Under the pieces are notes generated by a model that made no database searches, was not told where the DNA came from, and saw only the letters and a list, made by a program, of their open reading frames with translations. The position numbers and the translations under genes were made by a program. A DNA stretch of 64,000 bases from an uncultured delta proteobacterium (GTDB lineage: Bacteria > Desulfobacterota > RBG-13-43-22): positions 1,954,945-2,018,944 of the forward strand of contig CAWBOS010000010.1 in the NCBI GenBank assembly GCA_963790475.1, in the 5' to 3' direction. The first letter of the stretch is position 1; the number at the start of each line of letters is the position of its first letter. Of this stretch, positions 18,658 through 42,845 are shown piece by piece.

Positions 18658-18692
18658 TCTTAATTCAGTAAAAACGATTAAGGAGGAAGACC

Positions 18693-26066: not shown

Positions 26067-26399
26067 GTGAAAGCTGTCATACCAACAAAGGGGAAGAAAG
26101 CAAAGACCGATTCGACAGAAGAAATCTGGAATCTCCGGTTATATGTAGCCGGTCAGACCCAGAAATCAATTACGGCCTTTGCTAATTTAAAGAAGATCTG
26201 CGAAGAGCACCTCACGGGGAAATACCGCATTGAAGTGATAGACCTTTTAAAGAATCCCCACCTTGCTAAAGGGGACCAGATTATTGCCATACCGACACTG
26301 GTAAGGAAGCTTCCTGAACCGCTTAAAAAGATTATAGGAGATTTGGCTAACACAGAGCGCGTGCTGGTGGGACTCGACATTCGTTCTATATCCGGATGA
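26067..26399 (+). CDS. kaiB: KaiB
   Basis: [39 protein letters not shown]. Confidence 0.95.
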
Positions 26400-26424: not shown

Positions 26425-26769
26425 ATGGAAAGGAAAAGAGGGGAAACGAGCACTGAGGAATTCGAAGAAGTGGCGGCGAAGCAAGACCGGGCAAAGTATG
26501 TTCTTCGGCTGTATGTTACCGGGATGACCCCAAAGTCAACCCAGGCAATCGCCAATGTCCAGAAAATCTGTGAAAAACACCTGGCAGGCCGCTACGAACT
26601 CAAGGTGATAGACATCTACCAGCAGCCCAAGCTGGCCAAGGGAGAGCAGATTATTGCCACCCCAACGCTCATCAAAAAACTCCCTTTACCACTCCGGAAG
26701 CTCATCGGTGACATGTCGGATACGGAAAGGTTTCTTGTCGGCATCGATCTGAAACCCAAGGATTCATGA
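26425..26769 (+). CDS. kaiB: Second KaiB
   Basis: YVLRLYVTGMTPKS, VIDIYQQP, ATPTLIKKLPLPLRKLIGDMS. Confidence 0.93.
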   Translation: MERKRGETSTEEFEEVAAKQDRAKYVLRLYVTGMTPKSTQAIANVQKICEKHLAGRYELKVIDIYQQPKLAKGEQIIATPTLIKKLPLPLRKLIGDMSDTERFLVGIDLKPKDS

Positions 26770-26778
26770 GTACGATCA

Positions 26779-28758
26779 ATGAACAAATCATATAGAACAC
26801 ACCAGCAACTTTTGGATGAATTACAGGAACTCTCATCGCGGATGATGGAGGCTGAGGAAACCCTGCGTGCTATCCGAAGCGGTGAGGTGGATGGTCTGGT
26901 TGTCTCAACGGCGGAAGGAGATCGGGTCTTTACACTGATGGGTGCCGAGCATCCTTACCGGGTCATGGTCGAAACCATGAACGAAGGGGCCGTCACTCTG
27001 GCGTCCGACGGCACGATCCTTTACTGTAACCAAAGTTTTGCAGATATCGTCAGAGGGTCTCTGGAAAAAGTAATAGGATCTTCAATCTACCAATATATTT
27101 CATCAACAGACCTTCAATTATTTAAGGCATTGATTGAGCAGGGTTTAAAGGGGAACAGTAAGGGAGAACTGGCCTTACAGGCCGGAAGTGAAAATTCGGC
27201 ACCTGTCTTACTTTCCGTAAGTGCCCTTCAGCGCACGGACATGCCAGGTACGGTGTGCGCCGTAATGGTGGACATCACCGAGCGCAAGAAGATGGAGGAG
27301 ACGCTAAAGACTTCTGAAACTCGCTACCGCCGTCTCTTTGAAGCAGCCCAAGATGGAATATTAATCCTCAATGCCGAGACAGGACAAATAGTGGATGTTA
27401 ACCCATTCTTGTTAGAAATGCTGGGTTATACACATGAGGAGCTTTTTGGGAAAAAACTCTGGGAAATAGGCACGTTTAGAGATATTGAAGCATCGAAAGC
27501 CACCTCTGCGGAATTGAAGAGCAAAGGATATGTTCGCTACCATGATTTGCCGCTTAAGACGAAAGAAGGGCGGGAAATTTCCGTAGAATTTGTCAGCAAT
27601 GTCTATCTGGTTAATCATCATGAAGTGATTCAGTGTAACATCCGCGACACCACTGAAAGGAAACTTACAGCAGAGGCTTTAAAAAAATCTCACAACGAAC
27701 TGGAACGACAAGCTGTCGAACTTCGCACAGCTCTTTCTGAAATCCAAACCATGAAAGACCAACTGGAAGCCGAGAATATTTATTTCCGTCAAGAGAACAA
27801 AAGGAGACATCGATTCGACCATATTATCGGGCAAAGCGATGGTCTCAAGTATGTTCTCTATCGAGCGGAACAGGTCGCCCCTCAGGACACCACGGTCCTT
27901 ATTCTCGGTGAGACCGGTACGGGAAAAGAACTGGTCGCCGCTGCCATTCATAACCTAAGCCCTCGCCGGGAACGACCCTTGATCACCGTCAACTGTGCCG
28001 CCCTGCCGGCCAATTTAATCGAGAGCGAATTGTTCGGCCGGGAGAAGGGGGCCTTTACCGGGGCCGATACCCGGCAAGTCGGCCGGTTTGAGATCGCCCA
28101 TGGTTCCACCCTTTGCTTAGACGAGATCGGGGAACTGCCTTTGGATTTACAGGCCAAGCTGCTCCGGGTGATCCAGCATAATGAATTTGAGCGCCTGGGC
28201 TCGTCCAGGACCATCAAAGTCAATGTGCGGATCCTGGCGACAACCAATCGAAACCTTGAGGAAGAGGTGCGCCACAGTCGGTTTCGCCAGGACCTTTACT
28301 ATCGTCTCAACGTCTTCCCCATCACTGTCCCTCCTCTAAGGCAGCGGAAAGAAGACATCCCGCTGATGGTCCAGGCCTTCATAGAACGGTATTCTAAGAA
28401 ATTGGGCAAACAGATCACGTCCATTCAGAAGGAAACGATGAAGGCCCTCCAGGATTATCCCTGGCCCGGGAATGTCCGGGAGCTGGAAAGCATCATTGAA
28501 CGGGCCGTGATACTGTGCCCCGGGCCGGTCTTGCATCTGGCAGATAAACTGGAAATTTCATCCCCCCCACTCTCATCCCCCGTGAGAACCCTGGAAGGGA
28601 CGGAGCGAAACCAAATTATTAAGACCCTTTCAGAAACCCGATGGCGAATCGAGGGAAAGGACGGGGCCGCAGCTATCCTGGGCCTCCACCCAAGCACCCT
28701 GAGAGCCAGAATGCATAAGCTCGGGATAGTCCGGCCGGAAACTAAACCCTCGGATTAG
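26779..28758 (+). CDS. PAS-PAS sigma54 enhancer-binding protein
   Basis: N-terminal AEETLRAIRSGEVDGLVV, two PAS/PAC domains, GETGTGKE, ESELFGREKGAFTGA, WPGNVREL and HTH GAAAILGLHPSTLRARM. Confidence 0.93.
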   Translation: MNKSYRTHQQLLDELQELSSRMMEAEETLRAIRSGEVDGLVVSTAEGDRVFTLMGAEHPYRVMVETMNEGAVTLASDGTILYCNQSFADIVRGSLEKVIGSSIYQYISSTDLQLFKALIEQGLKGNSKGELALQAGSENSAPVLLSVSALQRTDMPGTVCAVMVDITERKKMEETLKTSETRYRRLFEAAQDGILILNAETGQIVDVNPFLLEMLGYTHEELFGKKLWEIGTFRDIEASKATSAELKSKGYVRYHDLPLKTKEGREISVEFVSNVYLVNHHEVIQCNIRDTTERKLTAEALKKSHNELERQAVELRTALSEIQTMKDQLEAENIYFRQENKRRHRFDHIIGQSDGLKYVLYRAEQVAPQDTTVLILGETGTGKELVAAAIHNLSPRRERPLITVNCAALPANLIESELFGREKGAFTGADTRQVGRFEIAHGSTLCLDEIGELPLDLQAKLLRVIQHNEFERLGSSRTIKVNVRILATTNRNLEEEVRHSRFRQDLYYRLNVFPITVPPLRQRKEDIPLMVQAFIERYSKKLGKQITSIQKETMKALQDYPWPGNVRELESIIERAVILCPGPVLHLADKLEISSPPLSSPVRTLEGTERNQIIKTLSETRWRIEGKDGAAAILGLHPSTLRARMHKLGIVRPETKPSD

Positions 28759-28762: not shown

Positions 28763-28930
28763 TCCGGCACCCCTCAAAATTTCCCTCAATATATGGAGGT
28801 TCCACTAAATATGGAGGTCCAACACATCCATTCGACCTTCTTTGCTATTCCCCCCTTACAATAAAACCCTGCGATATCAGGCCTGATTCCAAGCTTTTTC
28901 TTTTTTCTGATTTTTGGCAACCTCTTTGCA
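28763..28930 (+). promoter_or_regulatory. Conserved enhancer/sigma54 promoter module, copy 1
   Basis: CCCTCAAAATTTCCCTCAATATATGGAGGTTCCACTAAATATGGAGG...GATATCAGGCCTGATTCCA...TGGCAACCTCTTTGCA. Confidence 0.85.
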
Positions 28931-28943
28931 TTAACTATTCTCT

Positions 28944-29276
28944 ATGATCCTGGTCGTCATACGCATGAAGGTGCTTCCCGAGAAGCACCTGGAGTTGTCG
29001 CAGACGATTGCTTCCCTGATCAGCTCCATAAGGGCGGAGAAAGGTTGCCGGCGTTGCGACTTTTACCAGAGTGTTGAGGATGAAAATCAACTCAATCTTC
29101 TTGAGGAATGGGATACCCAGGAAAACTTTAATGGCTACCTGAAGTCGAGGAGTTTTGGGGTACTCCGGGGGGCGATGAATCTTCTCCAGGAGCCCTCTGA
29201 AATGACGTTCCACACCGTTTTCCACCCGGCAGGGATAAAGGAGATTTTAATAGATAAATTTCCTAAAAAGAGATAA
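28944..29276 (+). CDS. Antibiotic biosynthesis monooxygenase (ABM) family protein
   Basis: IRAEKGC..CDFYQ, LLEEW and the ~100-aa ferredoxin-like pattern. Confidence 0.82.
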   Translation: MILVVIRMKVLPEKHLELSQTIASLISSIRAEKGCRRCDFYQSVEDENQLNLLEEWDTQENFNGYLKSRSFGVLRGAMNLLQEPSEMTFHTVFHPAGIKEILIDKFPKKR

Positions 29277-29313
29277 AGGCTGAAATAATAAAAGAAGAAA
29301 GGAGATAAATGTC

Positions 29314-29466
29314 ATGGGACTCATCCTGATCGTCATCTTAGTCCTGGTGCTCATCGGCGCCTTGCCCACCTGGAATCACAGTAAGTCCTGGGGACCTTAT
29401 CCCAGCGGCGGAATCGGATTGATCCTTCTGATTGTGATCATCCTCTTAGTATTAGGGCGGATTTGA
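29314..29466 (+). CDS. DUF3309-type small membrane protein
   Basis: MGLILIVILVLVLIGALPTWNHSKSWGPYPSGGIGLILL..GRI with an AAGGAG RBS. It is below the ORF-track length cutoff. Confidence 0.88.
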   Translation: MGLILIVILVLVLIGALPTWNHSKSWGPYPSGGIGLILLIVIILLVLGRI

Positions 29467-29652
29467 GGATGTTTTAAGGCACATCAATTAGTTTTCAACA
29501 CCAACGACACAGAAAAAAGCGGAGATTTCCAGCCGCGCTGCTTCACTTGAAAAAGATACAAACAGGGTATGTAAAACGCATAGCCCCTAACCGTAGTCCA
29601 TGAATTGGGGGAATCTTGGCTCGTACAGAGCTTGGAAAGGAGGACGGACGCC

Positions 29653-29787
29653 ATGCAAATAGGACTAACGCCACAGCCGGTGGTTGCTCTAATCGCGGGA
29701 ATCCTGATTCTTGTCGCCCCGAGACTTTTGAATTATATCGTTGCCATCTATCTCATTATTTTTGGTATTCTCGGGTTGATCCGCTGA
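29653..29787 (+). CDS. DUF3096-type small membrane protein
   Basis: PVVALIAGILILVAPRLLNYIVAIYLIIFG with an AGGAGG RBS. Confidence 0.88.
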   Translation: MQIGLTPQPVVALIAGILILVAPRLLNYIVAIYLIIFGILGLIR

Positions 29788-30099
29788 TTGGCAGGATAAT
29801 TTTCTATTGTTAGAAAATTATCCTTTGAAATAAAATGACCCGGCAGTCAAGCCGAATTCCGACGTTAGGCGCCTCCATCGGTGTTGATGCTTTTGAAAGG
29901 ACCGGTGGGGAAAGAGTTAGAGGGACGGGCGGCGGCCCTCTTGAAAAGTTTTTTGAGGTAGGTAAAAAATTTTCCATAAGGACAAAGTTCCCTAACATAG
30001 GGGCAGTGTCCCGCCCTAACCGGGAGAGTCTATCTTAGGAGTCAAAGGAATATGGGAAAGGTCATTGGACTATAAGGTCTCACACAAAGGGGAAAGACC

Positions 30100-32508
30100 G
30101 TGAGGAAGATAAAGAGGGTGAAGAGCTGGATGGGTTTGGGGGTGTGTTTGTTTCTGGCAGCGGTGATGATGGTTCCGGTATCCTCGTCCGCAGACGCTCC
30201 GGCCATAGTGGTAGGCCGCATATTTCTAATTGAAGGGGATCTCCTTCGTTATGTTCCTGCGGAGAAGGACTGGGTGGCCGTGGTCAAGGACGCACCCTTC
30301 GGTGCCGAGGATACCCTCTTTTCCGGAACCCAGGGGATGGCGGAGCTGATCGTTCCCAACGACACCTGGATCAGGATCGGGAACAGCACCCAGATCCAGT
30401 TCATCACCCTGGATACCGACCTGTCCGAAATGGACATGGCTTCGGGTGTGGCTCGGTTCTACAACAAAAGCTCCGACACGGTCATCAAAGCCACAAGTCC
30501 CTTCGGATACGTCCTGGCCAATCCCGGAACGGTCTTCGATTTCTACGTGGGAGAAAACTCCATCGAAGTGGTCACGGTGAAAGGGAAAGTAAGTTTCGTC
30601 CACTCGGCCACTGAGACCAAATACAATGTGGCGGCCGGATCCCCCTCTATCCTCGCTGACCAGCGGCAAGTGTCCTCAGGCGATGGAACCGTCGATCCTG
30701 ACTGGAACCGCTGGAACACGGTCCGGGAAAACTTTTGGGCGGCGAAGGCCAGGGTGAGGGGACGCTCGGTCGAATATCTTCCGCCCAGTCTCCGAAACGA
30801 GTCGTATGCCCTGGATGAGACCGGAAGATGGGAGAGGGTCTCCTATGAAGGTACGGAGTGCTGGTTCTGGCGGCCTACCACAATAGTCGTAGGCTGGTCG
30901 CCTTTTTCCGTGGGCCGCTGGACCGACTGGTACGGGGACCAGACCTGGATCCCGGCGGAACCCTTCGGCTACGTCACCCACCATTACGGTAACTGGGTCT
31001 ATGTAGGAAAGTACTGGTACTGGGCCCCGCCTGTGGTGAGAAGGCGCGTCGGGCTTCCCCTCCTCGACGTGGGCTTCTTTTGGTATCCCGGAAGGGTTTC
31101 ATGGATTCACAGTGGAGCTTATGTGGGCTGGGTGCCTCTGGCGCCACTCGAGAATTACTACAGCTACCGCAACTGGGGAGGCCCTCACGATGTGGCCGTA
31201 ACCAACGTCAGTTTAGCGCGGATCAATATCAACCTCCGGAATTATGCCTACGCCAACCGTGCCGTTGTGGTCGACCGGAATAATTTCTATAAGGTGAACA
31301 ATTACGCGAAAGTCCGGGTGACCAACATAAACCCGGCCACCCTCATCAATAACTACCGTGCGGCACCGGTCGTCAATAACACGGTGATCGACAATTACAC
31401 GACGAACAAACAGCGTTATAATTATGGAAACATAACCGTAAAGGAGAAACCTCACAATACCGTGATCAACCGAATCCAGCAGAATCAGGCCATCATCCGT
31501 GAGGGCAGGAAAGAAAAGGCCTCCGTGGTCCAGGAACGAGTGAAGAGCATCCCGGAGGGGAAGGTTAACCGCGAAGTCCGGATCGAAACGCCCAAGGTCA
31601 CCAACCATATCGTACCCGCCGCCGAGGTGAACCGGCCGAAAGCGGAAATAAAGTTTCAGCAGAGGGAGATCAAAACCGGCGGAAAACCGGGTCTGCCGGA
31701 GAAGCCTGCCGTACGGCCGGAGCGTGTGGCCCCGGCCAGACCGAGTCCTCAGGAGAAACCCGGTCAACCCGCAGGACCGGAAAGAGTGAGTCCGGCAAGA
31801 CCTGCTCAACCTGTGCCGCCTTCAGCACGACCGGAGCGCGTGGCACCGGTCAGACCAAGCCCGCAGGAGCAACCTGGTCAACCCGCAAGACCGGAGCGAG
31901 CGGCTCCCCCAAAACCGGCTCCGCCTGAACCACCAGCAGCAAGACCTGAACGCGCAGCACCGGCCAGGCCAAGTCAGCAGGTGCAACGACCCGGTCAACC
32001 CGCAGGACCGGAACGAGTGAGTCCGGCAAGACCGGCTCAACCTGAACCACCAGCAGCAAGACCTGAACGTGCAGCACCAGCCAGGCCAAGTCAGCAGGTG
32101 CAACAACCCAGTCAACCCGCAAGACCGGAAAGAGTGGCTCCCCCAAAACCGGCTCCGCCTGAACCACCAGCAGCAAGACCTGAACGCGCAGCACCGGCCA
32201 GGCCGAGTCAGCAGGTGCAACAACCCAGTCAACCCGCAAGACCGGAAAGAGTGGCTCCCCCAAAACCGGCTCAGCCTCAACCACCAGCAGCAAGACCTGA
32301 ACGCGCAGCACCAGCCAGGCCGAGTCAGCAGGTGCAACAACCCGGTCAACCCGCAGGACCGGAGCGCGTGGTCCCGGCAAAACCGGCAGAGAAAGGTCCT
32401 GTACAAAAACAAATCGAAAAACCAAAGGACCAGAGGCCCCCTGAAAAAGATGAGGAAAACCCAAGAGAGCAGAAACGTCCCGAGGAAGAAAAGGGAAGAT
32501 CGAGGTAG
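30100..32508 (+). CDS. Secreted FecR-like/DUF6600-like protein with long Pro-rich repeat tail
   Basis: Signal peptide, FecR-like beta domain, Trp-rich GWSPFSVGRW..EPFGYVTHHYGNW..GWVPLAP and PARP repeats. Confidence 0.85.
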   Translation: MRKIKRVKSWMGLGVCLFLAAVMMVPVSSSADAPAIVVGRIFLIEGDLLRYVPAEKDWVAVVKDAPFGAEDTLFSGTQGMAELIVPNDTWIRIGNSTQIQFITLDTDLSEMDMASGVARFYNKSSDTVIKATSPFGYVLANPGTVFDFYVGENSIEVVTVKGKVSFVHSATETKYNVAAGSPSILADQRQVSSGDGTVDPDWNRWNTVRENFWAAKARVRGRSVEYLPPSLRNESYALDETGRWERVSYEGTECWFWRPTTIVVGWSPFSVGRWTDWYGDQTWIPAEPFGYVTHHYGNWVYVGKYWYWAPPVVRRRVGLPLLDVGFFWYPGRVSWIHSGAYVGWVPLAPLENYYSYRNWGGPHDVAVTNVSLARININLRNYAYANRAVVVDRNNFYKVNNYAKVRVTNINPATLINNYRAAPVVNNTVIDNYTTNKQRYNYGNITVKEKPHNTVINRIQQNQAIIREGRKEKASVVQERVKSIPEGKVNREVRIETPKVTNHIVPAAEVNRPKAEIKFQQREIKTGGKPGLPEKPAVRPERVAPARPSPQEKPGQPAGPERVSPARPAQPVPPSARPERVAPVRPSPQEQPGQPARPERAAPPKPAPPEPPAARPERAAPARPSQQVQRPGQPAGPERVSPARPAQPEPPAARPERAAPARPSQQVQQPSQPARPERVAPPKPAPPEPPAARPERAAPARPSQQVQQPSQPARPERVAPPKPAQPQPPAARPERAAPARPSQQVQQPGQPAGPERVVPAKPAEKGPVQKQIEKPKDQRPPEKDEENPREQKRPEEEKGRSR
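31700..32390 (+). repeat. Coding tandem repeat, 117-bp (39-aa) unit, about 5-6 copies
   Basis: CCT(G/C)AACCACCAGCAGCAAGACC recurs at 31924, 32041, 32158 and 32275. Confidence 0.85.
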
Positions 32509-32523
32509 GCAAAAGGATATTTA

Positions 32524-33591
32524 ATGACCGATAATGTTAAACGGACAGCCAAAACGCCCGCAATACTGATCCTGGCGAGTTTTATCATTGTGGTGGCGGG
32601 GATGAGGGCGGCCAGTTCCATCTTGGTTCCTTTTTTTGTGGCGGTGTTCATTGCCGTCATTTGCGCCCCGCCAATGTTCTGGCTGCAACGTAAGGGCGTG
32701 CCAAAGGTCATTGCGCTTGTGCTCATTCTGGTGACCATCCTCCTGGTAGGATTACTCTTGGGAGCATTGATCGGCCCTTCACTGAGTAATTTCTTGACCT
32801 CCCTTCCCAATTATCAAGAGCGATTATCGGCCTATATTGCCGCGTTAATAAACTGGCTGAGCGAGAAGGGCCTTAACATCCCGGCAGAGGAGGTGCCCCA
32901 TATCTTGAATCCGGGGTGGGTGATGAGCCTGGCAGGGGGTATATTCTCGGCCCTGAGCAGTGTCCTCACCGATACCTTTCTGATCCTGCTTACGGTGGTA
33001 TTCATCCTTCTGGAGGCAGCAGATTTTCCAAAGAAATTGCAGACCGTGTTAAAAATCCCGGAGAGGTCACTGTCTACCATTGAAAAATTCAGCCAGAGCG
33101 CCAAGCGCTATCTGGTCATTAAAACCCTGATCAGCGCTGCCGTTGGCCTGGTGATCTGGCTTTGGCTCCTGATCCTCGGGGTCGAATATCCGCTGCTCTG
33201 GGGAACGCTCTCGTTTCTGCTGAACTATGTGCCTAATATTGGGGCAATCATTGCTGTCCTGCCTGTTGCCCTTCTCGCGCTGGTCCAGTTGGGGGTGGGG
33301 TCTGCCCTTCTAACCGTCCTTGGCTTTGTGGTCGTGCATATTGTTCTGGGCAATATCATAGAACCCAAACTTACCGGCAAAGGCCTGAGTTTATCGACGC
33401 TGGTGGTCTTCCTTTCGATGGTCTTCTGGGGATGGGTTCTGGGACCGATTGGTATGATCCTCTCGGTGCCTATGACCAGCCTGGCCAAAATCGCGCTGGA
33501 AAGTTATGAAGAAACACAAGGGCTGGCCATCATGCTGGGATCCGGAAGCGAGATTGACCTGATCAAGAGGTTGAAGCGACGCAAGAAATAA
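32524..33591 (+). CDS. AI-2E family transporter
   Basis: Multiple transmembrane segments, FLLNYVPNIG, GNIIEPK and FWGWVLGPIGMILSVP. Confidence 0.92.
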   Translation: MTDNVKRTAKTPAILILASFIIVVAGMRAASSILVPFFVAVFIAVICAPPMFWLQRKGVPKVIALVLILVTILLVGLLLGALIGPSLSNFLTSLPNYQERLSAYIAALINWLSEKGLNIPAEEVPHILNPGWVMSLAGGIFSALSSVLTDTFLILLTVVFILLEAADFPKKLQTVLKIPERSLSTIEKFSQSAKRYLVIKTLISAAVGLVIWLWLLILGVEYPLLWGTLSFLLNYVPNIGAIIAVLPVALLALVQLGVGSALLTVLGFVVVHIVLGNIIEPKLTGKGLSLSTLVVFLSMVFWGWVLGPIGMILSVPMTSLAKIALESYEETQGLAIMLGSGSEIDLIKRLKRRKK

Positions 33592-33687
33592 GGCACGAAG
33601 GAAAGAAAGGATCTTTGAGCATCAGACCCTCGGGGCTCCATTCTTTAGGAATAAATCAGGGATTATCTCTTGGGTGTCCTTGACGCA

Positions 33688-34551
33688 ATGAAACAAACTT
33701 ATTTGATGAGATTCAAGCAGCACAGAGAAATTCTCAAAAACCTCGGCCTTCTTTGGGAAGTTCTTAAGAAATTCAATGATGACAATGGCTTTTTCTTATC
33801 TTCGGGGATTGCCTTCAATATCCTCCTCAACTTGATTCCTTTTATCCTGCTGCTATCAGCCTTGGTTGGAACTTATCTCTACAACGACCAGGAAGTGCTC
33901 AATCATATTCGCACCTATTTCCGGGATGTGGCTCCGGCATTGGATCCAAAGATAATGGGAAGCCTCGTGGATCTAATCGAGAACCGTCAGATTGTAGGAA
34001 TCCTTGGATTTGTAGGTTTGCTCTGGTTCTCCACCTGGGTTTTCAACTCCCTGCGGATTGCTCTCAATATCGTCTTCCGCACGAAGAAAAGCCGAGGAAT
34101 AATGCGGGGATTAGGCATTGATCTTTTGATGATTATCCTGGTAGGAATCCTCCTCCTGGTGAGCATGATTCTTAGCTCCGTGGTCCCCTTCCTTCAAAGT
34201 TACCAGGGACTGATTCCTGTGGCGATAGGGCCGACGATTCAATGGATCCTGAAATACCTGCTCCCTTTTTTCCTCACCTTTTGCATGTTTTTTTTGATTT
34301 ACAAAATCACCCCGAATAAGAGGGTCCACTTCAAATCCGCCCTTCAGGCGGCCCTTTTTGCCGGTTTGCTCTGGGAAGCAGCCAAACATCTTTTTGCCTG
34401 GTATGTCGTCCATCTCGCCAAGTACTCTTTTTTTTATGGCTCATTAAGTACCCTGGTCGTTTTCGTTTTGTGGGTCTATTATTCTGCGATCGTTCTCATT
34501 CTGGGCGGGGAATTTGCTTATTTCTTGGAAGAAAGCGAGAATCCAGTTTAA
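33688..34551 (+). CDS. YihY/BrkB family membrane protein (start uncertain)
   Basis: DNGFFLSSGIAF, ALNIVF, LWEAAK and YGSL..LWVYY. Confidence 0.9.
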   Translation: MKQTYLMRFKQHREILKNLGLLWEVLKKFNDDNGFFLSSGIAFNILLNLIPFILLLSALVGTYLYNDQEVLNHIRTYFRDVAPALDPKIMGSLVDLIENRQIVGILGFVGLLWFSTWVFNSLRIALNIVFRTKKSRGIMRGLGIDLLMIILVGILLLVSMILSSVVPFLQSYQGLIPVAIGPTIQWILKYLLPFFLTFCMFFLIYKITPNKRVHFKSALQAALFAGLLWEAAKHLFAWYVVHLAKYSFFYGSLSTLVVFVLWVYYSAIVLILGGEFAYFLEESENPV

Positions 34552-34597
34552 GAGGACGGAATTCAAGCCTAATTCCGGAATGACACCGCCCGCCTAT

Positions 34598-34757
34598 CCC
34601 TCAAAATTCCCCTCAATATATGGGGGTTCCACCACATATTGAGGCCTAATAATGGTTTCAATCTTCTTTACTAATCTTCCCTGTTCATCAAACCCTACGA
34701 TATCAGGCATGATTCCAGACTTCTTCTTTTTTCCTAGCTGTTGGTAAGCTACTTGCA
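34598..34757 (+). promoter_or_regulatory. Conserved enhancer/sigma54 promoter module, copy 2
   Basis: CCCTCAAAATTCCCCTCAATATATGGGGGTTCCACCACATATTGAGG...GATATCAGGCATGATTCCA...TGGTAAGCTACTTGCA. Confidence 0.85.
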
Positions 34758-34777
34758 TTTGTAATTTTGGTAGGCAA

Positions 34778-34849
34778 CCTTATCCCGTCAGCGAAATCGG
34801 ATTGATCCTCTTGGTCTTGATCATTCTGTTGCTGCCAGGTCGAATCTGA
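34778..34849 (+). pseudogene. DUF3309 C-terminal remnant
   Basis: PYPVSEIGLILLVLIILLLPGRI* resembles the end of 29314-29466. Confidence 0.65.
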
Positions 34850-35014
34850 CGTGGCTTTAAGGAGAAAGGAGGAAGTAAAAAGATAAGTATTGTAGATAAA
34901 GTAATAGGGTGTCGGCAGATCCGGAAAGGCTCAGGCGAATCTTACGATTCCTTACTAGAAAAAATTGCGCAATTAACCAGTTAACCAGTAAATTACAGAT
35001 TAGGAGTAACCGTC

Positions 35015-35329
35015 ATGAAAAAGAGAAATATCGTTATTCACTGTTTAGTGCTTCTTATGCTGATCACCACCTTTGCCGGCTGTGCCGCTACACGTACCCA
35101 TGAAAGCACAGGGGGATACGTTGACGATTCGGTCATCACCACTAAAATAAAATCTCTACTGGCAGCAGATGATTTTCTCAAGTCATTCCAGATCAGTGTC
35201 GAATCTTTCAAGGGCGTTGTTCAGCTAAGCGGTTTTGTTAATAATCAAAAGGCAGTCGATAAAGCGGCTGAAATCGCAATGAGCGTCAAAGGGGTCAAAT
35301 CCGTAAAGAATAATCTGATCGTGAAATAG
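35015..35329 (+). CDS. BON domain lipoprotein (OsmY-like)
   Basis: Lipobox FAGC, DDSVITTKIK, GVVQLSGFV and GVKSVKNNL. Confidence 0.92.
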   Translation: MKKRNIVIHCLVLLMLITTFAGCAATRTHESTGGYVDDSVITTKIKSLLAADDFLKSFQISVESFKGVVQLSGFVNNQKAVDKAAEIAMSVKGVKSVKNNLIVK

Positions 35330-35390
35330 GAAACGGTTATTCTATAGTGAGATTTATAAATAAGACACTTTTTGAAAGGAGGAGAATCCC

Positions 35391-35537
35391 ATGTTGTGGA
35401 CGATTGCCGTAATACTGATAATTCTGTGGCTGCTGGGATTGGTGACCAGTTATACGATGGGTGGGTTCATTCACATCGCGCTGGTGATTGCCGTTATCGT
35501 TATTATAGTCGGCCTTATTCAGGGACGGCGAGGGTAG
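35391..35537 (+). CDS. lmo0937 family small membrane protein
   Basis: MLWTIAVILIILWLLGLVTSYTMGGFIHIALVIAV..IQGRR with an AGGAGG RBS. Confidence 0.88.
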   Translation: MLWTIAVILIILWLLGLVTSYTMGGFIHIALVIAVIVIIVGLIQGRRG

Positions 35538-35616
35538 TAAGGCACGGTCCTCTCGTTCCATCATAGCTGAGGAATCGAGAGGTTTCCAGAAACCGAAGAT
35601 TATAAAGGAGATCATA

Positions 35617-35808
35617 TTGATTGCTCTGGGAATTGCGGCCTTTGCCTACCGGGGCATCGCCCACACGATCAGAGAGAAAATCCCTGATCTCGGCCCTATC
35701 CAGGGGGCGGCAGAGAAAACTAAAATTCTTCCGATGCCGCCCATGGTAGGGGTAATCGCGCTCGTGGGCGGCATCCTGCTGCTGGTTATGGGAAGCACAA
35801 AAGGGTAA
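35617..35808 (+). CDS. DUF3185-like small membrane protein, probably 5'-truncated
   Basis: AFAYRGI..REKIPDLGPIQ..EKTKILPMPPMVG. Confidence 0.6.
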   Translation: MIALGIAAFAYRGIAHTIREKIPDLGPIQGAAEKTKILPMPPMVGVIALVGGILLLVMGSTKG

Positions 35809-35846
35809 TGAGGATTAAAACAGAGATGTGTATAGGAGGTGGCAAA

Positions 35847-36659
35847 ATGAAAAAGTTATTTTTTGGAACATTGCTGTTAGCGTTGGTAATCGTAGTTCCT
35901 TGGCCGGCGATGGCCAGGGTAGATGTAAATATTAGTATTTCTCTGCCGCCGCCTATCTTTTTTGCCGCCCCACCGGCGCTGATAGTGCTGCCTGATACCT
36001 ATGTCTACGTCGTCCCTGACATAGACGCGGACATTTTCTTCTACAATGGTTGGTGGTGGCGTCTGTGGGAAGGACGTTGGTATCGCTCACATTATTATAA
36101 CCAGGGCTGGGATTATTATAACAATGTTCCCAGTTTTTATTTTGATATAGACCCGGGTTGGAGAGGATACTACAGAGACCGCAATTGGTATGGGCACCGC
36201 TGGAACTATGAACGGATTCCTTACCAGCAACTTCAACAGAACTGGAAGAGCTGGCATGACGATCGACATTGGGAAAGGCAAGGAACTTGGGGTGTCCAGA
36301 GCTATCAACCTCGACCACAACAACAGATACGGGAACTAAGACAACAAAGGCAACAGCAATATCAACAGAGGCCTGAGGTTCAGAAACCTCGAGTTCAGCA
36401 ACCGCAGAGACAAACTCAGGTTCAGCAGCCAAGACAAAAACCTCAAGAGAGAGTTCGGCAGCCTCAAAGGCAAGAGCAAAGACCTCGAGTTCAGCAACCG
36501 CAGAGACAAACTCAGGTTCAGCAGCCAAGACAAAAACCTCAAGAGAGAGTTCAGCAGCCCCAAAGGCAAGAGCAAAGACCTCAGGTTCAGCAACCGCAGC
36601 ACTCTCAACCTCAAGGAAAACCGGAAGGAGGGAAAGGAGAAAAGGAGGATAGAAAGTAG
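35847..36659 (+). CDS. Secreted Trp/Tyr-rich protein with Gln-rich repeat tail
   Basis: Signal peptide, VDVNISI, FFYNGWWWRLWEGRWY. A 96-bp direct repeat occurs at 36386 and 36482. Confidence 0.75.
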   Translation: MKKLFFGTLLLALVIVVPWPAMARVDVNISISLPPPIFFAAPPALIVLPDTYVYVVPDIDADIFFYNGWWWRLWEGRWYRSHYYNQGWDYYNNVPSFYFDIDPGWRGYYRDRNWYGHRWNYERIPYQQLQQNWKSWHDDRHWERQGTWGVQSYQPRPQQQIRELRQQRQQQYQQRPEVQKPRVQQPQRQTQVQQPRQKPQERVRQPQRQEQRPRVQQPQRQTQVQQPRQKPQERVQQPQRQEQRPQVQQPQHSQPQGKPEGGKGEKEDRK

Positions 36660-36924
36660 GATGATAAAAGGTTCACCTTTCAAAAAGAAGAGGCTCGCGT
36701 CGTCCCCTCCAGTACCAAAGTGATCTGGTTACATTGGCCTGCAAGGCCAAAAACTTTTGATAAGATTTCGTTTTTGAATGGAAAGAAAAAAGATAAGGAG
36801 GGTTGAGGAGAAAAGCAGAGTGGAAGGCAAAGGGGTAAAGTCCCTATGCCTCCTGATTTTCCTTTTGATGAGGCTCCGGCAGACGTTACTGAATTATGGG
36901 GAAGACTACCCTTTAAAATCAGCT

Positions 36925-38793
36925 CTATCCCAGTCGATAACCTTTTTCTCGAAATAATCTCAGACAGGCCACTGCGACAGCGTTGTCGTAAAGGGTCCCT
37001 CTATTCTTCTCAATTTCCTCCAGGGCAGCGTCAAGGCCCAAGGCCGGGCGGTATGGCCGGTTAGAGGCCATGGCTTCCACCACATCAGCCACAGCCAAAA
37101 TGCGGGCTTCCATAAGAATGTTATCCCCTTTCAGATTTCTTGGATAGCCCGAACCATTCATCCGCTCATGGTGTTGATAAACAATTTGGGCCAGCGGCCA
37201 GGGGGATTCGACGTCCTTCAGGATATCGTACCCTCTTTGAGAGTGTTCTTTAATCAGTGAAAATTCGATTACAGTCAATTTTGTTGGCTTGGACAATATC
37301 TCGGCAGGTATGGATAGTTTTCCAATGTCATGGACGGCACCGGCCATGCGCAGGCCATCGATTTTATCCTGAGAAAGTCCCATCTCGGTGGCAATGGCCC
37401 GGGCAAGGTCCGCGGACCGGGCCTGGTGACCGGCGGTATAAGGATCTCTTGCCTCCACGGTGGACACCATGACCTGGATGATCGTGCTAAACGCCTTCCT
37501 GAGACTCTCCAGGGTATGTTGAAGTTGTTCCTTGGCCCGCTTGTCCTCGGTGATATCCTCGGAGATGCCCAGCAGGTATTCCGGTTCTCCCTCTGCGTTC
37601 AGGATCGGCACCTTCTTGGTGTGCAGTGTGCGCTCTCCCTTATTACGGGTCTGAATAGGTTCTTCCGGGATATCCACAAGCTCCTTCCCATGCAGAACCT
37701 CCCGATCCTTCTCCGTAAAGGAGTCGGCCTGCTTCTTTGGGAAGAAATCGTAATCGTTCTTCCCCAGCAGGTCATCCCTGGAAAGACCTAGCAGATTCTC
37801 TCCCGCCCGGTTGAACCGGATGAACCGGAGTTCCCTGGCATCCTTGAGGAAGATCATATCAGGAATATTCTCGACAATCGAGTCCAGAAACACATTCATC
37901 CGGCGCAGTTTCTCCTCCGCCTGCTTGTGCTCCGTAATATCAATGATAGCTCCTCTGAGTCCCACAGGCTTGTCATTTATGCAAATGACACTCGAGATTA
38001 CTATGGCCGGAAAGACAGACCCATCCAACCTCATGAAAGTATATTCAGTACCTTCTATTTTCTCCCCCCTTAACAGTCTTTCAATGTTTTTACCGGATTT
38101 TTCAATCTCTTCTGGTGAAAGTAGCTGCCATACTTTAAAACCCTTTTTTAAATCCTCTTCAGTACCTCTAAAAGTCTCATAAATAGCCCGGTTAGCCGAT
38201 GTAATATTGGTTTCCAAATCCATCTCATAAACTGGGATTGGCAAAAAATCATACAGGTCACGATACCTTTTCTCGCTCTCCCTCAGTTTTTCCTCGGCCT
38301 GCTTGCGCGCGGTGATGTCCTGCTGCAGGTTCTCCAATGCTTGCCTTAATTCTTCGGTCCTCCTGGTCACCTCGGACTCCAGCTCTTTCTGGTAATTACT
38401 CATCAAATCGTTGTAGGCCTTGATCTTGAGTAGGGACCGGACCCGGGCCAAAAGCTCCATCTTATCCACAGGATATGAAATAAAATCATCACACCCGGCT
38501 TCAATTCCCTTTACCCGATCTTCCGTTTCCCGCAATACGGAAACCAAGATTATCGGAAGCAGTCGATGTGTATTATCCTGCCTGACCCTACGGGTAACTT
38601 CAAGACCATCCATGCCGGGCATCAAGACGTCCAGCAAAATCAGATCAATTTGATTCTCAGAAAGTTTCTCCAGCGCTTCCTCACCGTTTGACGCCTTGAC
38701 AATTTCATAACCCTGCGGAACAAGATAGGCCTCGAGAAGTTCAATGTTTTCGGGCTGGTCGTCCGCAACCAAGATTACCGGTTTGTCTTTCAT
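36925..38793 (-). CDS. REC-PAS-PAS-HD-GYP cyclic dinucleotide phosphodiesterase
   Basis: REC domain, two PAS domains, RDPYTAGHQ, HDIGK, HHERMNGSGYP and RPYR. Confidence 0.93.
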   Translation of the reverse strand: MKDKPVILVADDQPENIELLEAYLVPQGYEIVKASNGEEALEKLSENQIDLILLDVLMPGMDGLEVTRRVRQDNTHRLLPIILVSVLRETEDRVKGIEAGCDDFISYPVDKMELLARVRSLLKIKAYNDLMSNYQKELESEVTRRTEELRQALENLQQDITARKQAEEKLRESEKRYRDLYDFLPIPVYEMDLETNITSANRAIYETFRGTEEDLKKGFKVWQLLSPEEIEKSGKNIERLLRGEKIEGTEYTFMRLDGSVFPAIVISSVICINDKPVGLRGAIIDITEHKQAEEKLRRMNVFLDSIVENIPDMIFLKDARELRFIRFNRAGENLLGLSRDDLLGKNDYDFFPKKQADSFTEKDREVLHGKELVDIPEEPIQTRNKGERTLHTKKVPILNAEGEPEYLLGISEDITEDKRAKEQLQHTLESLRKAFSTIIQVMVSTVEARDPYTAGHQARSADLARAIATEMGLSQDKIDGLRMAGAVHDIGKLSIPAEILSKPTKLTVIEFSLIKEHSQRGYDILKDVESPWPLAQIVYQHHERMNGSGYPRNLKGDNILMEARILAVADVVEAMASNRPYRPALGLDAALEEIEKNRGTLYDNAVAVACLRLFREKGYRLG

Positions 38794-38880
38794 CCTCTAT
38801 CTCTTTTAAATTTTATTTTTCAATATATTACAAAACTCACTTAGTAAATTGACTGATTTCTTTGGCCAAGGTGCGCGTAT

Positions 38881-39930
38881 CTATCGGCTTACTTCATAAA
38901 TTTCAACGGGCAACAACTTGCCTTTCAGATGAAGCGGCTCCAGTGTGCGAAATTTTATTTTTCCTTCTACCCGCATTAGGGCACTTTTTGTAATGAGAAC
39001 TTGGCCGGAGCCTGCTGTTGACTCTACTCTCTGGGCAGTGTTCACGACGTCGCCAATGACCGTGTAATCCATTGTTTCATCAGTCCCCGTGTTTCCGACA
39101 ACCACCTCTCCGTAGTTTATCCCTATGCCGATCCCTAGCTTTTTCAACTCCGGCGGCCATCCCTGTTTTAAATCTTCAAAAGCGCCTTGCATTTCCAAGG
39201 CAGCCCGAACTGCCCATACTGTTTCATCTTCGATATCCGTCGGGGCACCCCAGAAAGCCATGATGCAGTCGCCGATATACTTGTCAAAGGTACCTTTGTT
39301 TTTGAAAACGATTCCGGTAAGCGCCTGGTATATGGTGTTGAGCAAATGGATAAGTTCATCTGCATTCATGCCCTCAGAAAGAGAGGTGAATCCGCGTACG
39401 TCACAGAAAAACACCGCAACCTCTTTTCTATCACCGCCCAACTCCGAATACTTGTCCGGGTTGGCGAGTATCTGTTCAATAACGCTGCGGTCTACATAAC
39501 GATGCAACATACTGGATATCAACTGATTCCTTAACTCCACTTCATCGTGGAGAAATTTCATCTTCAGCAAATTATTGACACGGGCAATAAGTTCGATCTT
39601 TTGAAAAGGTTTGTTCAGGAAATCGTCCGCTCCGGCTTTAAGTCCCTCGATTTTTGCCTCCAGGTTATCAAGAGCGGTCAGCATGACTATCGGTAGGAAA
39701 GCGTTTCCCGAATCACTTTTGACTTTTCTGCAAACCTCATATCCGTTCATTCCGGGCATCATCACATCCAGCAGAATCAGATCGATTTGATTATCAGAGA
39801 TTTTCCCCAGTGCTTCTTCACCGTTTGCCGCCTCGACAATTTCATAACCCTGCGGAACAAGATGGGCTTCGAGAAGTTCAATGTTTTGGGGCTGGTCATC
39901 CACAACTAAGATTACCGGTTTGTCTTTCAT
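38881..39930 (-). CDS. REC-adenylate/guanylate cyclase (class III)
   Basis: FFCDVRGFT, DKYIGDCIMAFWG, GIGINYG, YTVIGDVVNTAQR and LKGK. Confidence 0.93.
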   Translation of the reverse strand: MKDKPVILVVDDQPQNIELLEAHLVPQGYEIVEAANGEEALGKISDNQIDLILLDVMMPGMNGYEVCRKVKSDSGNAFLPIVMLTALDNLEAKIEGLKAGADDFLNKPFQKIELIARVNNLLKMKFLHDEVELRNQLISSMLHRYVDRSVIEQILANPDKYSELGGDRKEVAVFFCDVRGFTSLSEGMNADELIHLLNTIYQALTGIVFKNKGTFDKYIGDCIMAFWGAPTDIEDETVWAVRAALEMQGAFEDLKQGWPPELKKLGIGIGINYGEVVVGNTGTDETMDYTVIGDVVNTAQRVESTAGSGQVLITKSALMRVEGKIKFRTLEPLHLKGKLLPVEIYEVSR

Positions 39931-39973
39931 CCTCTATCTCTTCTGAATTTTACTTTTCAACCTATTGGAAAAC

Positions 39974-40339
39974 TCACTTGATAAATTGACTGATTTCTTT
40001 GGCAAAGGTGCGCGTATTTATCGGCTTACCTATAAATCCGCTGTTGGCTATGGCGTTGACCTCTTCTCGGCCTTCTGCCATTACCGAAGCAGTCACAAAA
40101 ACAATGGGAATATAGCCGGTCTCTTTATCTTGACGTAATATATTGGCGGCTTCGGTACCACGCATATCTGGAAGCCGCACATCCATTATTATAATATCCG
40201 GTTTTTCTTTCCGGGCAATGGCGATTCCATCGGCAGCATTTTCCGCTTCAAATACTTCAAAGCCGGCGACCTCCAAGAGGTCTTTTTCCAGCATCAGATT
40301 GTTTCCATTATCATCGACGACTAATGCTTTCTTCCTCAT
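39974..40339 (-). CDS. Single-domain response regulator (DivK/CheY-like)
   Basis: LVVDD, IIMDVRLP, FVTAS and KP. Confidence 0.9.
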   Translation of the reverse strand: MRKKALVVDDNGNNLMLEKDLLEVAGFEVFEAENAADGIAIARKEKPDIIIMDVRLPDMRGTEAANILRQDKETGYIPIVFVTASVMAEGREEVNAIANSGFIGKPINTRTFAKEISQFIK

Positions 40340-40340
40340 C

Positions 40341-41579
40341 TCACACCACCCCCCCGGATACAATAGGCAGAGTAAACCGGACCGAGGTGCCTTTATTTAG
40401 CCCTTCTGATTCTACAGAAAGCTTCCCGCCGTGCAGCTCAACCAGCTTCCGGGAGAGCGGCAAACCGAGTCCGGTCCCCTCGGTTACCCGAGAATATGGG
40501 GTATCGACACGGAAAAACCCTTCAAATATCTTCCCCATGTTTTCAGGTGCGATACCGACCCCCGTATCCCAGACCGTTATTTCTATCTCGGGATCGGCTT
40601 TCTCCGCCCGCATGCCAATTTTACCACCCTCGGCGGTAAATTTAACCGCATTGGAAAGCAGGTTGTAAATTATCTCTTTCACCTTGAGTTCATCGGCCTC
40701 AATATTCGGCAGGTCTTCGTCTATTTCAATCAACATTTCAATCTTTTTTTTGCTGACCATATCCTCTACCAGTCGTGAAATCTCATTTAATAGGCTTTTC
40801 ATAGGTAAGTTCGATAATGTCAGCTTCATCTTTCCGGCTTCAACTTTGGCCATATCGAGTATCTGATTTATCAGTAAGAGAAGGTGCTTCCCGCTGGTTA
40901 GGACGTTATTAACGTATTTCTTCTGCTTCTCATTGAGCGGTCCGAAGGTCTCGTCGTATAAAACCTCAGAGAAACCGTTAATGGAGTTAAGCGGGGTCCT
41001 AAGCTCATGCGACATATTGGCCAAAAATTCAGATTTTACCTTGGCGGTGCGTTTCAACTCGGCGGCCAACTCCTGTAACTCTTCATGGGCTTTTTCCAGA
41101 CCGTTTTCTATCTCCCTGCGTTCGGTGATATCCTCGATGGCCAGGAGGATGATCCGCTCTTTCCCAAACCCCCTCTTAATCTGCCGGGCGTTCAAAAGCA
41201 TTATGCGCCTGCCAATGGTGGCAAAATCGTGTTCCACTTCATAGTTATCAAAGGTTGTCTTTTGGGGAAGGATGGTTTCCAGGAGTTCCCGCAGTTTGGG
41301 GATATCCCACTGTTTATTTCCCAGGTCATAGACAAGCTGACCCACGGTCTCTTTGGGGTTTACCTTAAAAACTTCATAGAAGGAGCGACTGACGGAGACC
41401 ACCCTTAAATCTTGATCCAGAGCGATTAGGGGTTCACGTATGGTGTTGATGATGCTCTCGGCGTATTCGCTGGCTGCATCTTCGGATATTTTAGTCGCGG
41501 CCGGTTCTTTGGCGGCTTTTTCCAGACCATTTTCTATCTCCTGGCGATCGGTGATGTTGCCGGCCATACTCAAGGCCAC
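40341..41579 (-). CDS. PAS histidine kinase (probably N-terminally truncated)
   Basis: PAS domain, FLANMSHELRTPL, NLLSNAVKFT, DTGVGI and GTGLGL. The N-terminus repeats the ITxRxEIENGLEKA PAC linker. Confidence 0.88.
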   Translation of the reverse strand: MALSMAGNITDRQEIENGLEKAAKEPAATKISEDAASEYAESIINTIREPLIALDQDLRVVSVSRSFYEVFKVNPKETVGQLVYDLGNKQWDIPKLRELLETILPQKTTFDNYEVEHDFATIGRRIMLLNARQIKRGFGKERIILLAIEDITERREIENGLEKAHEELQELAAELKRTAKVKSEFLANMSHELRTPLNSINGFSEVLYDETFGPLNEKQKKYVNNVLTSGKHLLLLINQILDMAKVEAGKMKLTLSNLPMKSLLNEISRLVEDMVSKKKIEMLIEIDEDLPNIEADELKVKEIIYNLLSNAVKFTAEGGKIGMRAEKADPEIEITVWDTGVGIAPENMGKIFEGFFRVDTPYSRVTEGTGLGLPLSRKLVELHGGKLSVESEGLNKGTSVRFTLPIVSGGVV

Positions 41580-41781
41580 CTCCTTGTCTCCCCCTCCAAT
41601 TCCTATCCTTGCTTGAACCGAAAGAGGTAAGATTGATCCATCTTTCCGAAAATGGAAGATAAAACTTAATGTATATAGTGCCGTTTATCTATGGAAATGT
41701 CAAATGAAACCGACGGGGTGGAGGGTATCGGTTCACCACCTCTTCGGGGGAGTACCCCGGTTTTAGGTGTCCTTTAGGATA

Positions 41782-41949
41782 TCCGGCACCCCTCAAAATT
41801 TCCCTCCATATTTGGAGGTTCCACCAGATATGGAGGCTGGAAAAATCTTTCAACCTTCTTGGCCAATCTCTCTTATTCATTAAACTTCTGGATATCAGGC
41901 TTGATTCCAACCTTCTTCCTTTCCCCCGGTTGTTGGTAAGCTACTTGCA
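41782..41949 (+). promoter_or_regulatory. Conserved enhancer/sigma54 promoter module, copy 3
   Basis: TCCGGCACCCCTCAAAATTTCCCTCCATATTTGGAGGTTCCACCAGATATGGAGG...GATATCAGGCTTGATTCCA...TGGTAAGCTACTTGCA. Confidence 0.85.
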
Positions 41950-42010: not shown

Positions 42011-42193
42011 ATGAAATCAAGCAGTAGGGACAAGGCGGAAGGAAAGTTTCACGAAGTGAAGGGAAAGGTCAAGGAGGTCGCCGGGAAAGTCAGCGATAAT
42101 CCTGAGTTGGAAGCTGAAGGTATTGGCGAAAAGATAGCCGGGAAGGTTCAAAAGAAAATCGGCCAGGTGAAGAAAGCCGTCGAGAAACTGTGA
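42011..42193 (+). CDS. CsbD family general stress protein
   Basis: DKAEGKFHEVKGKVKEVAG..LEAEG..EKIAGKVQ. Confidence 0.9.
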   Translation: MKSSSRDKAEGKFHEVKGKVKEVAGKVSDNPELEAEGIGEKIAGKVQKKIGQVKKAVEKL

Positions 42194-42275: not shown

Positions 42276-42845
42276 ATGGACTTATCGGCCGTAAGCACGA
42301 CACAAATAGCTATAGTCATCGCTGTCGCCGTGGTGGTGGTCGCAGGCATCGCCATCTACTTTTTTTTCCGTAAACGCCGAACGAAAAGGCTAAGGAACCA
42401 ATTTGGTGGCGCTGAATATACCCGCACCGTGAAAGAAGGCGGAGGCCGGCGGAAAGCAGAAGGGGTGCTCGACGAGCGCGCAGAACGAGTGGAGGGCTTG
42501 CACATCCGGCCGCTCGCTCCGGGCGACCGAGCGCGGTTTGTCGAGTCCTGGGGCAAAGTCCAGGCGCGGTTCGTTGACAGCCCCGGAGGTGCCGTATCAG
42601 AAGCCGACCAACTGCTGGGCGATGTGATGTCCAAACGTGGCTATCCGGTAAGCGACTTTGAACAGCGGGTGGCGGATATCTCTGTGGATCATCCACTGGT
42701 TCTCGAAAATTATCGTGCCGCTCACCAAATTGCGCTTCGTCAAACGCAGGGGCAGGCCAGCACCGAAGACTTGCGCCAGGCCATGATTCATTACCGGACG
42801 CTTTTTGAGGAGCTGGTCGGCAAGCCGGAGGCGGAGCGTCCATAG
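42276..42845 (+). CDS. Conserved hypothetical protein with N-terminal membrane anchor
   Basis: AGGAGG RBS, transmembrane segment then RKRRT, VQARFVDSP, RGYP and EDLRQAMIHYR. Confidence 0.8.
   Translation: MDLSAVSTTQIAIVIAVAVVVVAGIAIYFFFRKRRTKRLRNQFGGAEYTRTVKEGGGRRKAEGVLDERAERVEGLHIRPLAPGDRARFVESWGKVQARFVDSPGGAVSEADQLLGDVMSKRGYPVSDFEQRVADISVDHPLVLENYRAAHQIALRQTQGQASTEDLRQAMIHYRTLFEELVGKPEAERP

Follow-up and report, generated by a model that had tools for sequence, protein, structure and literature searches.

The window considered here is a stretch of 64,000 nucleotides from the genome of an uncultured delta proteobacterium of the phylum Desulfobacterota. In it a kaiC-kaiB-kaiB operon runs into the gene of a sigma-54 activator, and directly behind that gene stands the first of three copies of a block of about 165 base pairs (bp), here called the module: a pair of palindromic boxes followed, at nearly constant distance, by a sigma-54-type promoter (Table 1). 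An initial annotation of the window had reported these copies and taken them to define a Kai-controlled general-stress regulon. All three lie where it had placed them, and they align with a mean column identity of 76%.

Table 1. Features of the kai locus, the module copies and the genes behind them (window positions; C6 and C10 are other contigs of the genome)
Feature	Position	Strand	Remarks
kaiC, two-domain, Rhodobacter type	24305..26065	+	8DBA match E 1.6e-192; PRK09302 above cut-off
kaiB, first copy	26067..26399	+	
kaiB, second copy	26425..26769	+	
sigma-54 activator	26779..28758	+	N-terminal domain, two PAS, AAA+, helix-turn-helix with HPSTLRARMHKL
module copy 1	28763..28930	+	boxes 28784-28799, 28802-28817; promoter 28915-28929; directly behind activator stop
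copy 1, candidate IHF-like zone	~28858-28884	+	degenerate in copy 1; predicted
copy 1, predicted start site	~28941	+	predicted
ABM-domain gene	28944..29276	+	behind copy 1
DUF3309 small membrane protein	29314..29466	+	
DUF3096 small membrane protein	29653..29787	+	
FecR/DUF6600 protein, AI-2E transporter, YihY/BrkB membrane protein	30100..34551	+	
module copy 2	34598..34757	+	boxes 34611-34626, 34629-34644; promoter 34742-34756
DUF3309 3' remnant, start-less	34748..34849	+	first thing behind copy 2
BON-domain (OsmY-like) lipoprotein	35015..35329	+	
lmo0937/DUF5670 membrane protein	35391..35537	+	94% identical paralog behind C6 module copy
module copy 3	41782..41949	+	boxes 41803-41818, 41821-41836; promoter 41934-41948
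CsbD	42011..42193	+	behind copy 3
189-aa membrane-anchored protein, no known family	42276..42845	+	after CsbD behind module in a relative too
extra module copy	C6:490430-490600	minus	profile search
extra module copies	C10:212941 and C10:219240		profile search

The module and its copies

Each copy reads, in order: a CCCTCAAA lead-in, box 1, two bases, box 2, a spacer of about 95 bases, and a TGG-N10-GC promoter. The boxes are 16-bp palindromes (consensus CCTCA-N6-TGAGG), box 2 starting 18 bp after the start of box 1, and the GG-N10-GC promoter lies 132 bp from box 1 in all three window copies. A profile built from these three picks out three further matches in the genome, one on contig C6 (E 1e-37) and two on C10 (E 1e-23 and 8e-21); below them come noise and the reverse strands of the boxes themselves. 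The count of three thus holds for the window, while the whole genome carries six. The GG-N10-GC (-24/-12) element is kept in all six, and both C10 copies have a 22-bp insertion that contributes a third, weaker box. This recurrence is not due to chance: a box matrix trained on 38-40 boxes of other genomes, with this genome's own copies left out, finds four box pairs here, all followed by a promoter at 131-132 bp, and in three shuffled genomes it finds no pair and no box-plus-promoter match in any.

The copies have not diverged uniformly, as neutral duplication would predict. Among four genome copies, identity is 88% in the boxes and promoter, 67-70% in the spacers, 32% in the upstream flank and 46% in the downstream flank. 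The annotation was right to say that the spacers have diverged, in that they are less alike than the boxes and promoter, but they stay so well above the flanks that free divergence is not the word for it, and the block must therefore have been copied as a whole; the boxes and the promoter, its presumptive working parts, have been held since. An Rfam scan gives no match at the module copies, and among the 25 longest terminal inverted repeats listed none bounds them. Between 23900 and 43700, scans for sigma-70 promoters and for terminators yield 27 (vs 17.7 +/- 5.8 in shuffles) and 26 (vs 23.8 +/- 5.2), respectively, counts that say nothing either way.

In relatives the geometry is strikingly rigid. 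By BLAST, the module is found in 13 of 20 genomes of the same family and in none of 20 from other families. Of 46 modules taken from relatives' loci and the window, 44 have both boxes scored, and the spacing is 18 bp in 42 and 40 bp in two three-box copies. A larger collection of 129 box pairs (relatives' loci, the window and 80 genome loci, seven duplicate loci dropped) has room for a promoter in 126 cases; the sigma-54 consensus stands on the forward side in 117 of these and on the backward side in one. When the metagenome loci described below are joined to the earlier ones, 153 distinct modules result, and the distance from box 1 to the GG is 131-136 bp in 148 and 123-126 bp in five, the larger indels falling near whole helical turns (about -10 and +22 bp). 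The sigma-54-type promoter proposed for this element is thus borne out, oriented and at a fixed distance from its boxes. A word within one mismatch of the consensus for integration host factor (IHF) is present in 104 of the 153, as against roughly 24 in shuffles; its most frequent place is -52 to -54 on the lower strand, where it overlaps the GATATCAGGC element of the initial annotation. Genes for RpoN and for IHF/HU are both in the genome. In 89 of the 153 the start codon comes 26-28 bases past the first G. (A side observation: about ten module copies that do not adjoin an activator, at L004, L005, L010, L013, L020 and window 41700-41780 among them, are preceded by a conserved stretch of about 90 bp, which differs from the activator's 3' end.)

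Within genomes, the sequences argue, the module clearly spreads by duplication, and the duplicates often drag a piece of ABM or DUF3309 along; the start-less DUF3309 remnant behind copy 2 reads as a trace of just such an event. Among genomes its spread is patchy (30 of 401 in the phylum sample described below). Close copies turn up in bins labelled Nitrospirota and Planctomycetia, with 90% identity across phyla in assembled bins. Horizontal transfer of the cassette is likely on this pattern, and binning errors possibly account for the cross-phylum copies; the cassette is without a mobility gene and its GC content is that of the genome.

The activator clade and its predicted sites

Which protein reads the boxes? 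The obvious candidate is the adjacent activator, whose AAA+ domain is intact (Walker A, GAFTGA, Walker B, arginine finger) and whose helix-turn-helix (HTH) word, HPSTLRARMHKL, is found in none of the other 28 of the genome's 29 activators. In a quick tree of 78 activator cores it falls in a clade of 69 (support 99 by the Shimodaira-Hasegawa-like approximate likelihood-ratio test, SH-aLRT), of which it is the genome's sole member and which, from the C-terminal sequence, we take to be FhlA-like. Of the 64 clade loci with downstream room, 47 have a box pair no more than 300 bp from the activator: 19 of the 22 Kai-linked loci, 21 of the 31 non-Kai ones, 6 of the 8 whose upstream sequence is short and 1 of the 3 near Kai. 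If the whole downstream part of the locus is counted, the number rises to 57; none of the seven activators outside the clade has a pair within 300 bp. An independent set of 80 metagenome loci, fetched by alignment of the N-terminal domain and unused in training the boxes, gives the same picture: in 34 of 37 clade activators the pair follows immediately, 33 times together with a promoter (34 of 38 when L153, a clade member with no adjacent pair, is counted).

Presence and absence of the two partners also go together. In 401 genomes drawn evenly from the phylum the box-pair pattern occurs in 30, the activator's C-terminus in 26 and the two together in 24, from at least nine families; the reversed pattern has no match in the same 401. 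The two genomes with only the activator are instructive: one (G234) has a module that the pattern missed, and the other (G132) has another HTH and another box. Two of the genomes with only the pattern (G012, G002) hold activator fragments.

Box and helix also vary together. Where related activators carry other HTH words, the layout is kept and the box is changed: xRSTLRARMRKL pairs with GGTCA-N4-TGACC (L074, L106, L107), RPTTLDSRMKKL with GGCGA-N4-TCGCC (L105) and NPSTLRFRIRRL with CCGCA-N6-TGCGG (L195), all read by eye. Because boxes and activators co-occur, adjoin one another and change together at the DNA-binding helix, the boxes are very likely the binding sites of the adjacent activator clade, as had been proposed, and that proposal is well supported. 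Such adjacency is the ordinary pattern, since in the published main text on Desulfovibrio vulgaris ten of thirteen one-component activators adjoin sigma-54 promoters (Kazakov et al., PMC4641369).

Kai and other inputs

The kaiC-kaiB-kaiB operon of the window is the only one in the genome, and its kaiC is single-copy. KaiC is nearest to the Rhodobacter protein (8DBA); residues 428-429, the phosphorylation position, are Ser-Ser, and a coiled coil extends the C-terminus; kaiA was looked for in the genome and not found. By sequence this is a KaiA-less KaiBC system: a two-domain KaiC with its phosphorylation sites and coiled coil, a kaiB, and no kaiA found.

The activator's first ~60 residues form a domain that matches no Pfam family and is widespread (4892 clusters at E 0.001). 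Because kaiB lies directly upstream of it in 78 of 79 metagenome loci (and in all 26 rows of the tree that carry the domain), it makes a good candidate receiver of the Kai signal. Its usual setting is a kinase: the 94 best matches of at least 400 amino acids include 54 with kinase domains, three with a sigma-54 domain and one with an HD domain, the other 36 being left unassigned by the proxies used. A complex prediction of activator residues 1-80 with both KaiBs, KaiC left out, scores 0.01, which speaks neither for nor against contact.

As a general statement, "Kai-controlled" does not survive. The clade of 69 divides into 23 activators that are Kai-linked, 42 with neither Kai genes in the fetched locus nor the N-terminal domain (nine of these loci having less than 3.5 kb upstream), and four near a kai operon. 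The N-termini of the non-Kai members are PAS arrays in 36 of 40, one is a receiver, some stand behind CheB-CheR fusions and some are missing. Three of 20 family genomes have a close KaiC (a fragment turned up as well), as do three of 15 carriers of other families, where one copy is frameshifted; among the 24 phylum genomes with both activator and boxes, six have one. Incomplete assemblies may hide some KaiC. (A technical note: the Kai-linked protein served as query in choosing part of the first genome sets, a choice that biases them toward Kai; and although the quick tree counts 15 gains or losses of Kai, only three are forced by strong branches and the order of changes is unsupported.) Read this way, the module marks the regulon of an activator clade whose input appears exchangeable, with Kai at best one of several interchangeable inputs. 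Where a Kai-linked activator carries the sister HTH, the box that it adjoins is the sister box, and no box pair is seen in the loci of Kai-linked kinases.

For this genome, with the operon and the activator gene in one row, whether Kai controls the regulon strikes us as an evenly balanced question. Upstream of the window's kaiC there is neither a box nor a sigma-54 promoter, so autoregulation is not to be expected here. In three relatives a module does lie upstream of kaiC (L072:7108; L107:6996, with the sister box; L091:1975, divergent), an arrangement that would allow feedback on the kai operon.

Targets, alternatives and significance

What would such a regulon do? Among the first open reading frames (ORFs) behind 117 modules, with Pfam scanned on 37 representatives, 45 start like the ABM gene (many truncated, one fused to CsbD). 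The other clusters are DUF932 (6), DUF5670 (5), OmpA (5), BON (5), CsbD (4), Spy-like LTXXQ (4) and DUF3309 (4), and 39 ORFs fall in small or single clusters, among them a cardiolipin-synthase-like phospholipase D (PLD), MlaE, lactate dehydrogenase, a glycosyltransferase, MarR and a sigma-70 factor. Catalase, Dps and Ku are not found among the annotated first genes behind modules. The C6 copy precedes the lmo0937 paralog and a Rieske/FAD reductase; of the C10 copies, the one at C10:212941 precedes a PAS-HD-GYP gene and the other a 69-aa frame of no family. The ATG of the window's ABM gene lies at predicted position +4 of copy 1 with no ribosome-binding site, on which ground its message is probably leaderless. 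The FecR/DUF6600-AI-2E-YihY/BrkB block is also found between modules in relatives. Most downstream labels of the initial annotation stand (ABM, DUF3309, DUF3096, BON, DUF5670/lmo0937, CsbD); DUF3185 falls away, the frame at 35509-35805 having no Pfam match at E 0.01. Beside these we note a module at L092:3776-5065 before the gene of a 282-aa sigma-70-family factor, possibly a regulatory cascade.

OsmY/BON, lmo0937 and YtxH proteins are tied to general stress. The genome has six matches to sigma-70 region 2, which by size and motif we read as RpoD, RpoH, FliA and three of extracytoplasmic-function (ECF) size; no RpoS- or SigB-like factor is among the six by size and sequence, and the RpoS model TIGR02394 is above its cut-off in none of 25 carrier genomes. 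The hallmark stress-regulon genes CsbD and OsmY/BON are both module-led; CsbD is described as a direct EcfG target in Sphingopyxis (PMC7083833) and as RpoS-controlled in Salmonella (PMC5437024). Of the proposed stress regulon, then, this much stands: the targets are largely small stress-type genes, in a genome with no RpoS or SigB found, and it is reasonable to suppose that the set works like a small general-stress regulon.

A number of observations pull the other way, and belong together. Seventeen of the 64 clade activators lack a box pair within 300 bp, and seven lack one anywhere downstream in the locus. In four box-pair genomes (G004, G008, G309, G338) no activator was found, possibly because of assembly gaps: G004, with at least eight box sites, is 88% complete, and its cluster, like the module of G008, lies near contig ends. 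Four activators with a sister HTH have no obvious box behind them, three with less than 300 bp of room (L097, L148, the second copy of L107) and one with 3.5 kb (L177). The 153 modules were chosen by box and promoter, which inflates their information values. The window's own copies match the IHF consensus poorly, and 40 other AT-rich sigma-54-like sites of the genome have no fixed IHF position. Several targets (DUF932, lactate dehydrogenase, MlaE, PAS-HD-GYP) are not stress genes, and 9 of the 25 carriers have extra RpoD/RpoS-like factors below the RpoS cut-off.

How do other explanations fare? The operon that runs into the window activator, the 23 Kai-linked members of the clade and the boxes before kaiC itself in L072 and (as the sister box) in L107 might suggest that Kai is the defining switch wherever the module occurs; the 42 members with neither Kai genes nor N-terminal domain, the scarcity of close KaiC in activator-plus-box genomes and in the family, and the 21 of 31 non-Kai activators that sit on a module despite a first sampling that favoured Kai make this very unlikely. 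Could the boxes instead be bound by some other common factor, such as a repressor like NrdR or another activator, the neighbour being a passenger? The box core does resemble the NrdR box, orphan modules exist in four genomes, and there are 28 other sigma-54 activators to choose from; yet the pattern is not found in 371 of the 401 phylum genomes and the box changes with the adjacent HTH, and we consider such a factor scarcely probable. (Identity with the NrdR box was itself rejected: on the box matrix the window boxes reach 19-27 bits, and the NrdR-like site ahead of nrdD comes out at -4.6.)

We give almost no credence to neutral segmental duplication of one promoter, its extra copies being decaying relics. 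The spacers do share ancestry and many copies are trailed by broken ABM starts or a DUF3309 remnant, but boxes and promoter are better conserved than spacers, spacing and orientation are held across 153 modules, the larger indels fall near helical turns, and copies stand before recurring gene families in many genomes. A further reading grants that activator and boxes are cognate, and makes the regulon specific for redox, oxygen or envelope functions and the kai operon merely a co-transcribed neighbour. The commonest first gene, ABM, has a substrate that is unknown, the regulon is small (six promoters here), and the PAS domains of the non-Kai N-termini could be the actual sensors; against this stand the control of CsbD by EcfG and RpoS in the accounts cited above, and the tie of the N-terminal domain to kaiB across kinases and activators alike. 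We find this reading unlikely, if worth keeping in view.

The explanation that we favour, and hold to be probable, is a copied sigma-54 promoter unit, read by the neighbouring FhlA-like clade, that serves a small stress regulon with an exchangeable input, plausibly Kai in this genome. The element would be a complete promoter unit, with tandem palindromic activator sites, a probable IHF bend site and a -24/-12 promoter, answering to one FhlA-like clade (with its HPSTLRARMHKL HTH) in Desulfobacterota and a few other anaerobes. The typical arrangement, an activator gene followed by the module and next by an ABM gene that is probably leaderless, would have been enlarged by copying the whole 165-bp block before CsbD, BON, lmo0937, DUF3309, OmpA and Spy-like genes, giving a small stress and envelope regulon to cells in which no RpoS or SigB was found. 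The input end of the activator would be swappable, the kaiC-kaiB-kaiB operon being the input in this case, and Kai would probably act through the N-terminal domain as an energy-state switch or hourglass, not as a self-sustained clock. Binding, IHF, start sites, stress induction and Kai control we infer from DNA and protein sequence. For the Kai-linked subset we offer more tentatively the possibility that KaiC and two KaiBs directly gate the activator through its N-terminal domain, of a kind that thousands of kinases also carry, so that a timer sensing ATP/ADP would turn on a small general-stress regulon in dark-living, energy-limited anaerobes without RpoS or SigB.

The rest of the window can be dealt with briefly. 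A signalling operon on the minus strand (36925-41579) diverges from copy 3. It encodes a PAS kinase, a receiver, a receiver-adenylate cyclase and a receiver-PAS-HD-GYP protein, and a receiver region of 300 nt is duplicated in it; similar PAS and HD-GYP parts are found in the gene that follows the module at C10:212941. A second duplicated promoter-plus-gene unit, in inverted orientation (45130-45542, plus; 46359-46751, minus), encodes two secreted microproteins rich in Lys, Ala and Glu (weak Asr match); a sigma-54-like GG-N10-GC precedes each of them, with no CCTCA-type boxes. An intergenic repeat of 45-60 bp occurs at 44440-44499, 47004-47063, 49486-49545 and 53815-53859, with eight further matches in the genome. 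The block at 15758-19712, also present upstream of the activator in L025, comprises a two-component sigma-54 system that has a promoter of its own, at 18642, ahead of a dihaem cytochrome c. Genes for vWA, PP2C phosphatase and Sel1-kinase stand in a row at 201-6488 (presumably a TerY-type triad), followed by an ADP-ribosylglycohydrolase, and a beta-lactamase-fold (serine hydrolase family) gene at 9864-10729 is split across two overlapping frames. Near a DDE transposase (50977-52356) and a group II intron D1-D4 fragment (53612-53752) several genes look truncated.

Parts of this system have precedents. The one-component sigma-54 regulons of D. vulgaris Hildenborough (PMC4641369) likewise place the activator beside its own promoter, comprise a few operons each, and have upstream sites mostly within ~100 nt; unlike those of that article's main text (motif figure and supplements aside), the present regulon has another clade and other targets, swapped inputs and a block copied whole. 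FhlA-type activators of E. coli share the one-component AAA+ plan, palindromic upstream sites, an IHF zone (putative here) and a -24/-12 promoter, and differ in input (GAF there, PAS and Kai-associated here), in box and in targets (formate hydrogenlyase there, stress-type genes here). The kaiC-kaiB-PAS/histidine kinase operon of Rhodopseudomonas palustris and Rhodobacter sphaeroides also has a KaiA-less KaiC with a coiled-coil tail, then kaiB, then a PAS signalling gene, as outlined in PMC4794148, and the Rhodobacter system is reported in summary to be reset by the ATP-to-ADP ratio (bioRxiv 10.1101/2022.11.28.518275); here, in contrast, kaiB occurs twice, the output gene encodes a transcription activator and has its target promoter directly behind it, and the host group is non-photosynthetic. 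With RpoS, SigB and EcfG regulons the module has CsbD in common (PMC7083833, PMC5437024), but it relies on sigma-54 and an ATP-dependent activator, has no dedicated sigma-70-family factor that could be found, and is far smaller. The Kai proteins of Pseudomonas are also tied to stress and not to a clock, but in the accounts accessible to us they work without KaiB and signal via kinases, with no sigma-54 output described. A literature search, with most subscription papers and the supplements of PMC4641369 outside it, turned up no account of a kaiC-kaiB-kaiB sigma-54 activator, of a CCTCA-type box or of its regulon.

What KaiBC acts on outside the cyanobacteria is an open question, because it tends to lie beside kinases whose targets are unknown. 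In this window it lies beside a transcription activator, and the predicted site and promoter of that activator can be read directly from the DNA. Natural variants can serve as controls, some having the same activator but no Kai, others Kai and an activator that goes with a different box. Beyond Kai, a group of anaerobes for which neither RpoS nor SigB was found gains a motif and a candidate stress regulon, and the module gives a clear example of a regulon's growth by the copying of a whole promoter block. Should direct gating by Kai prove true, this would be a one-step transcriptional output of a non-cyanobacterial Kai system, with its binding site known.

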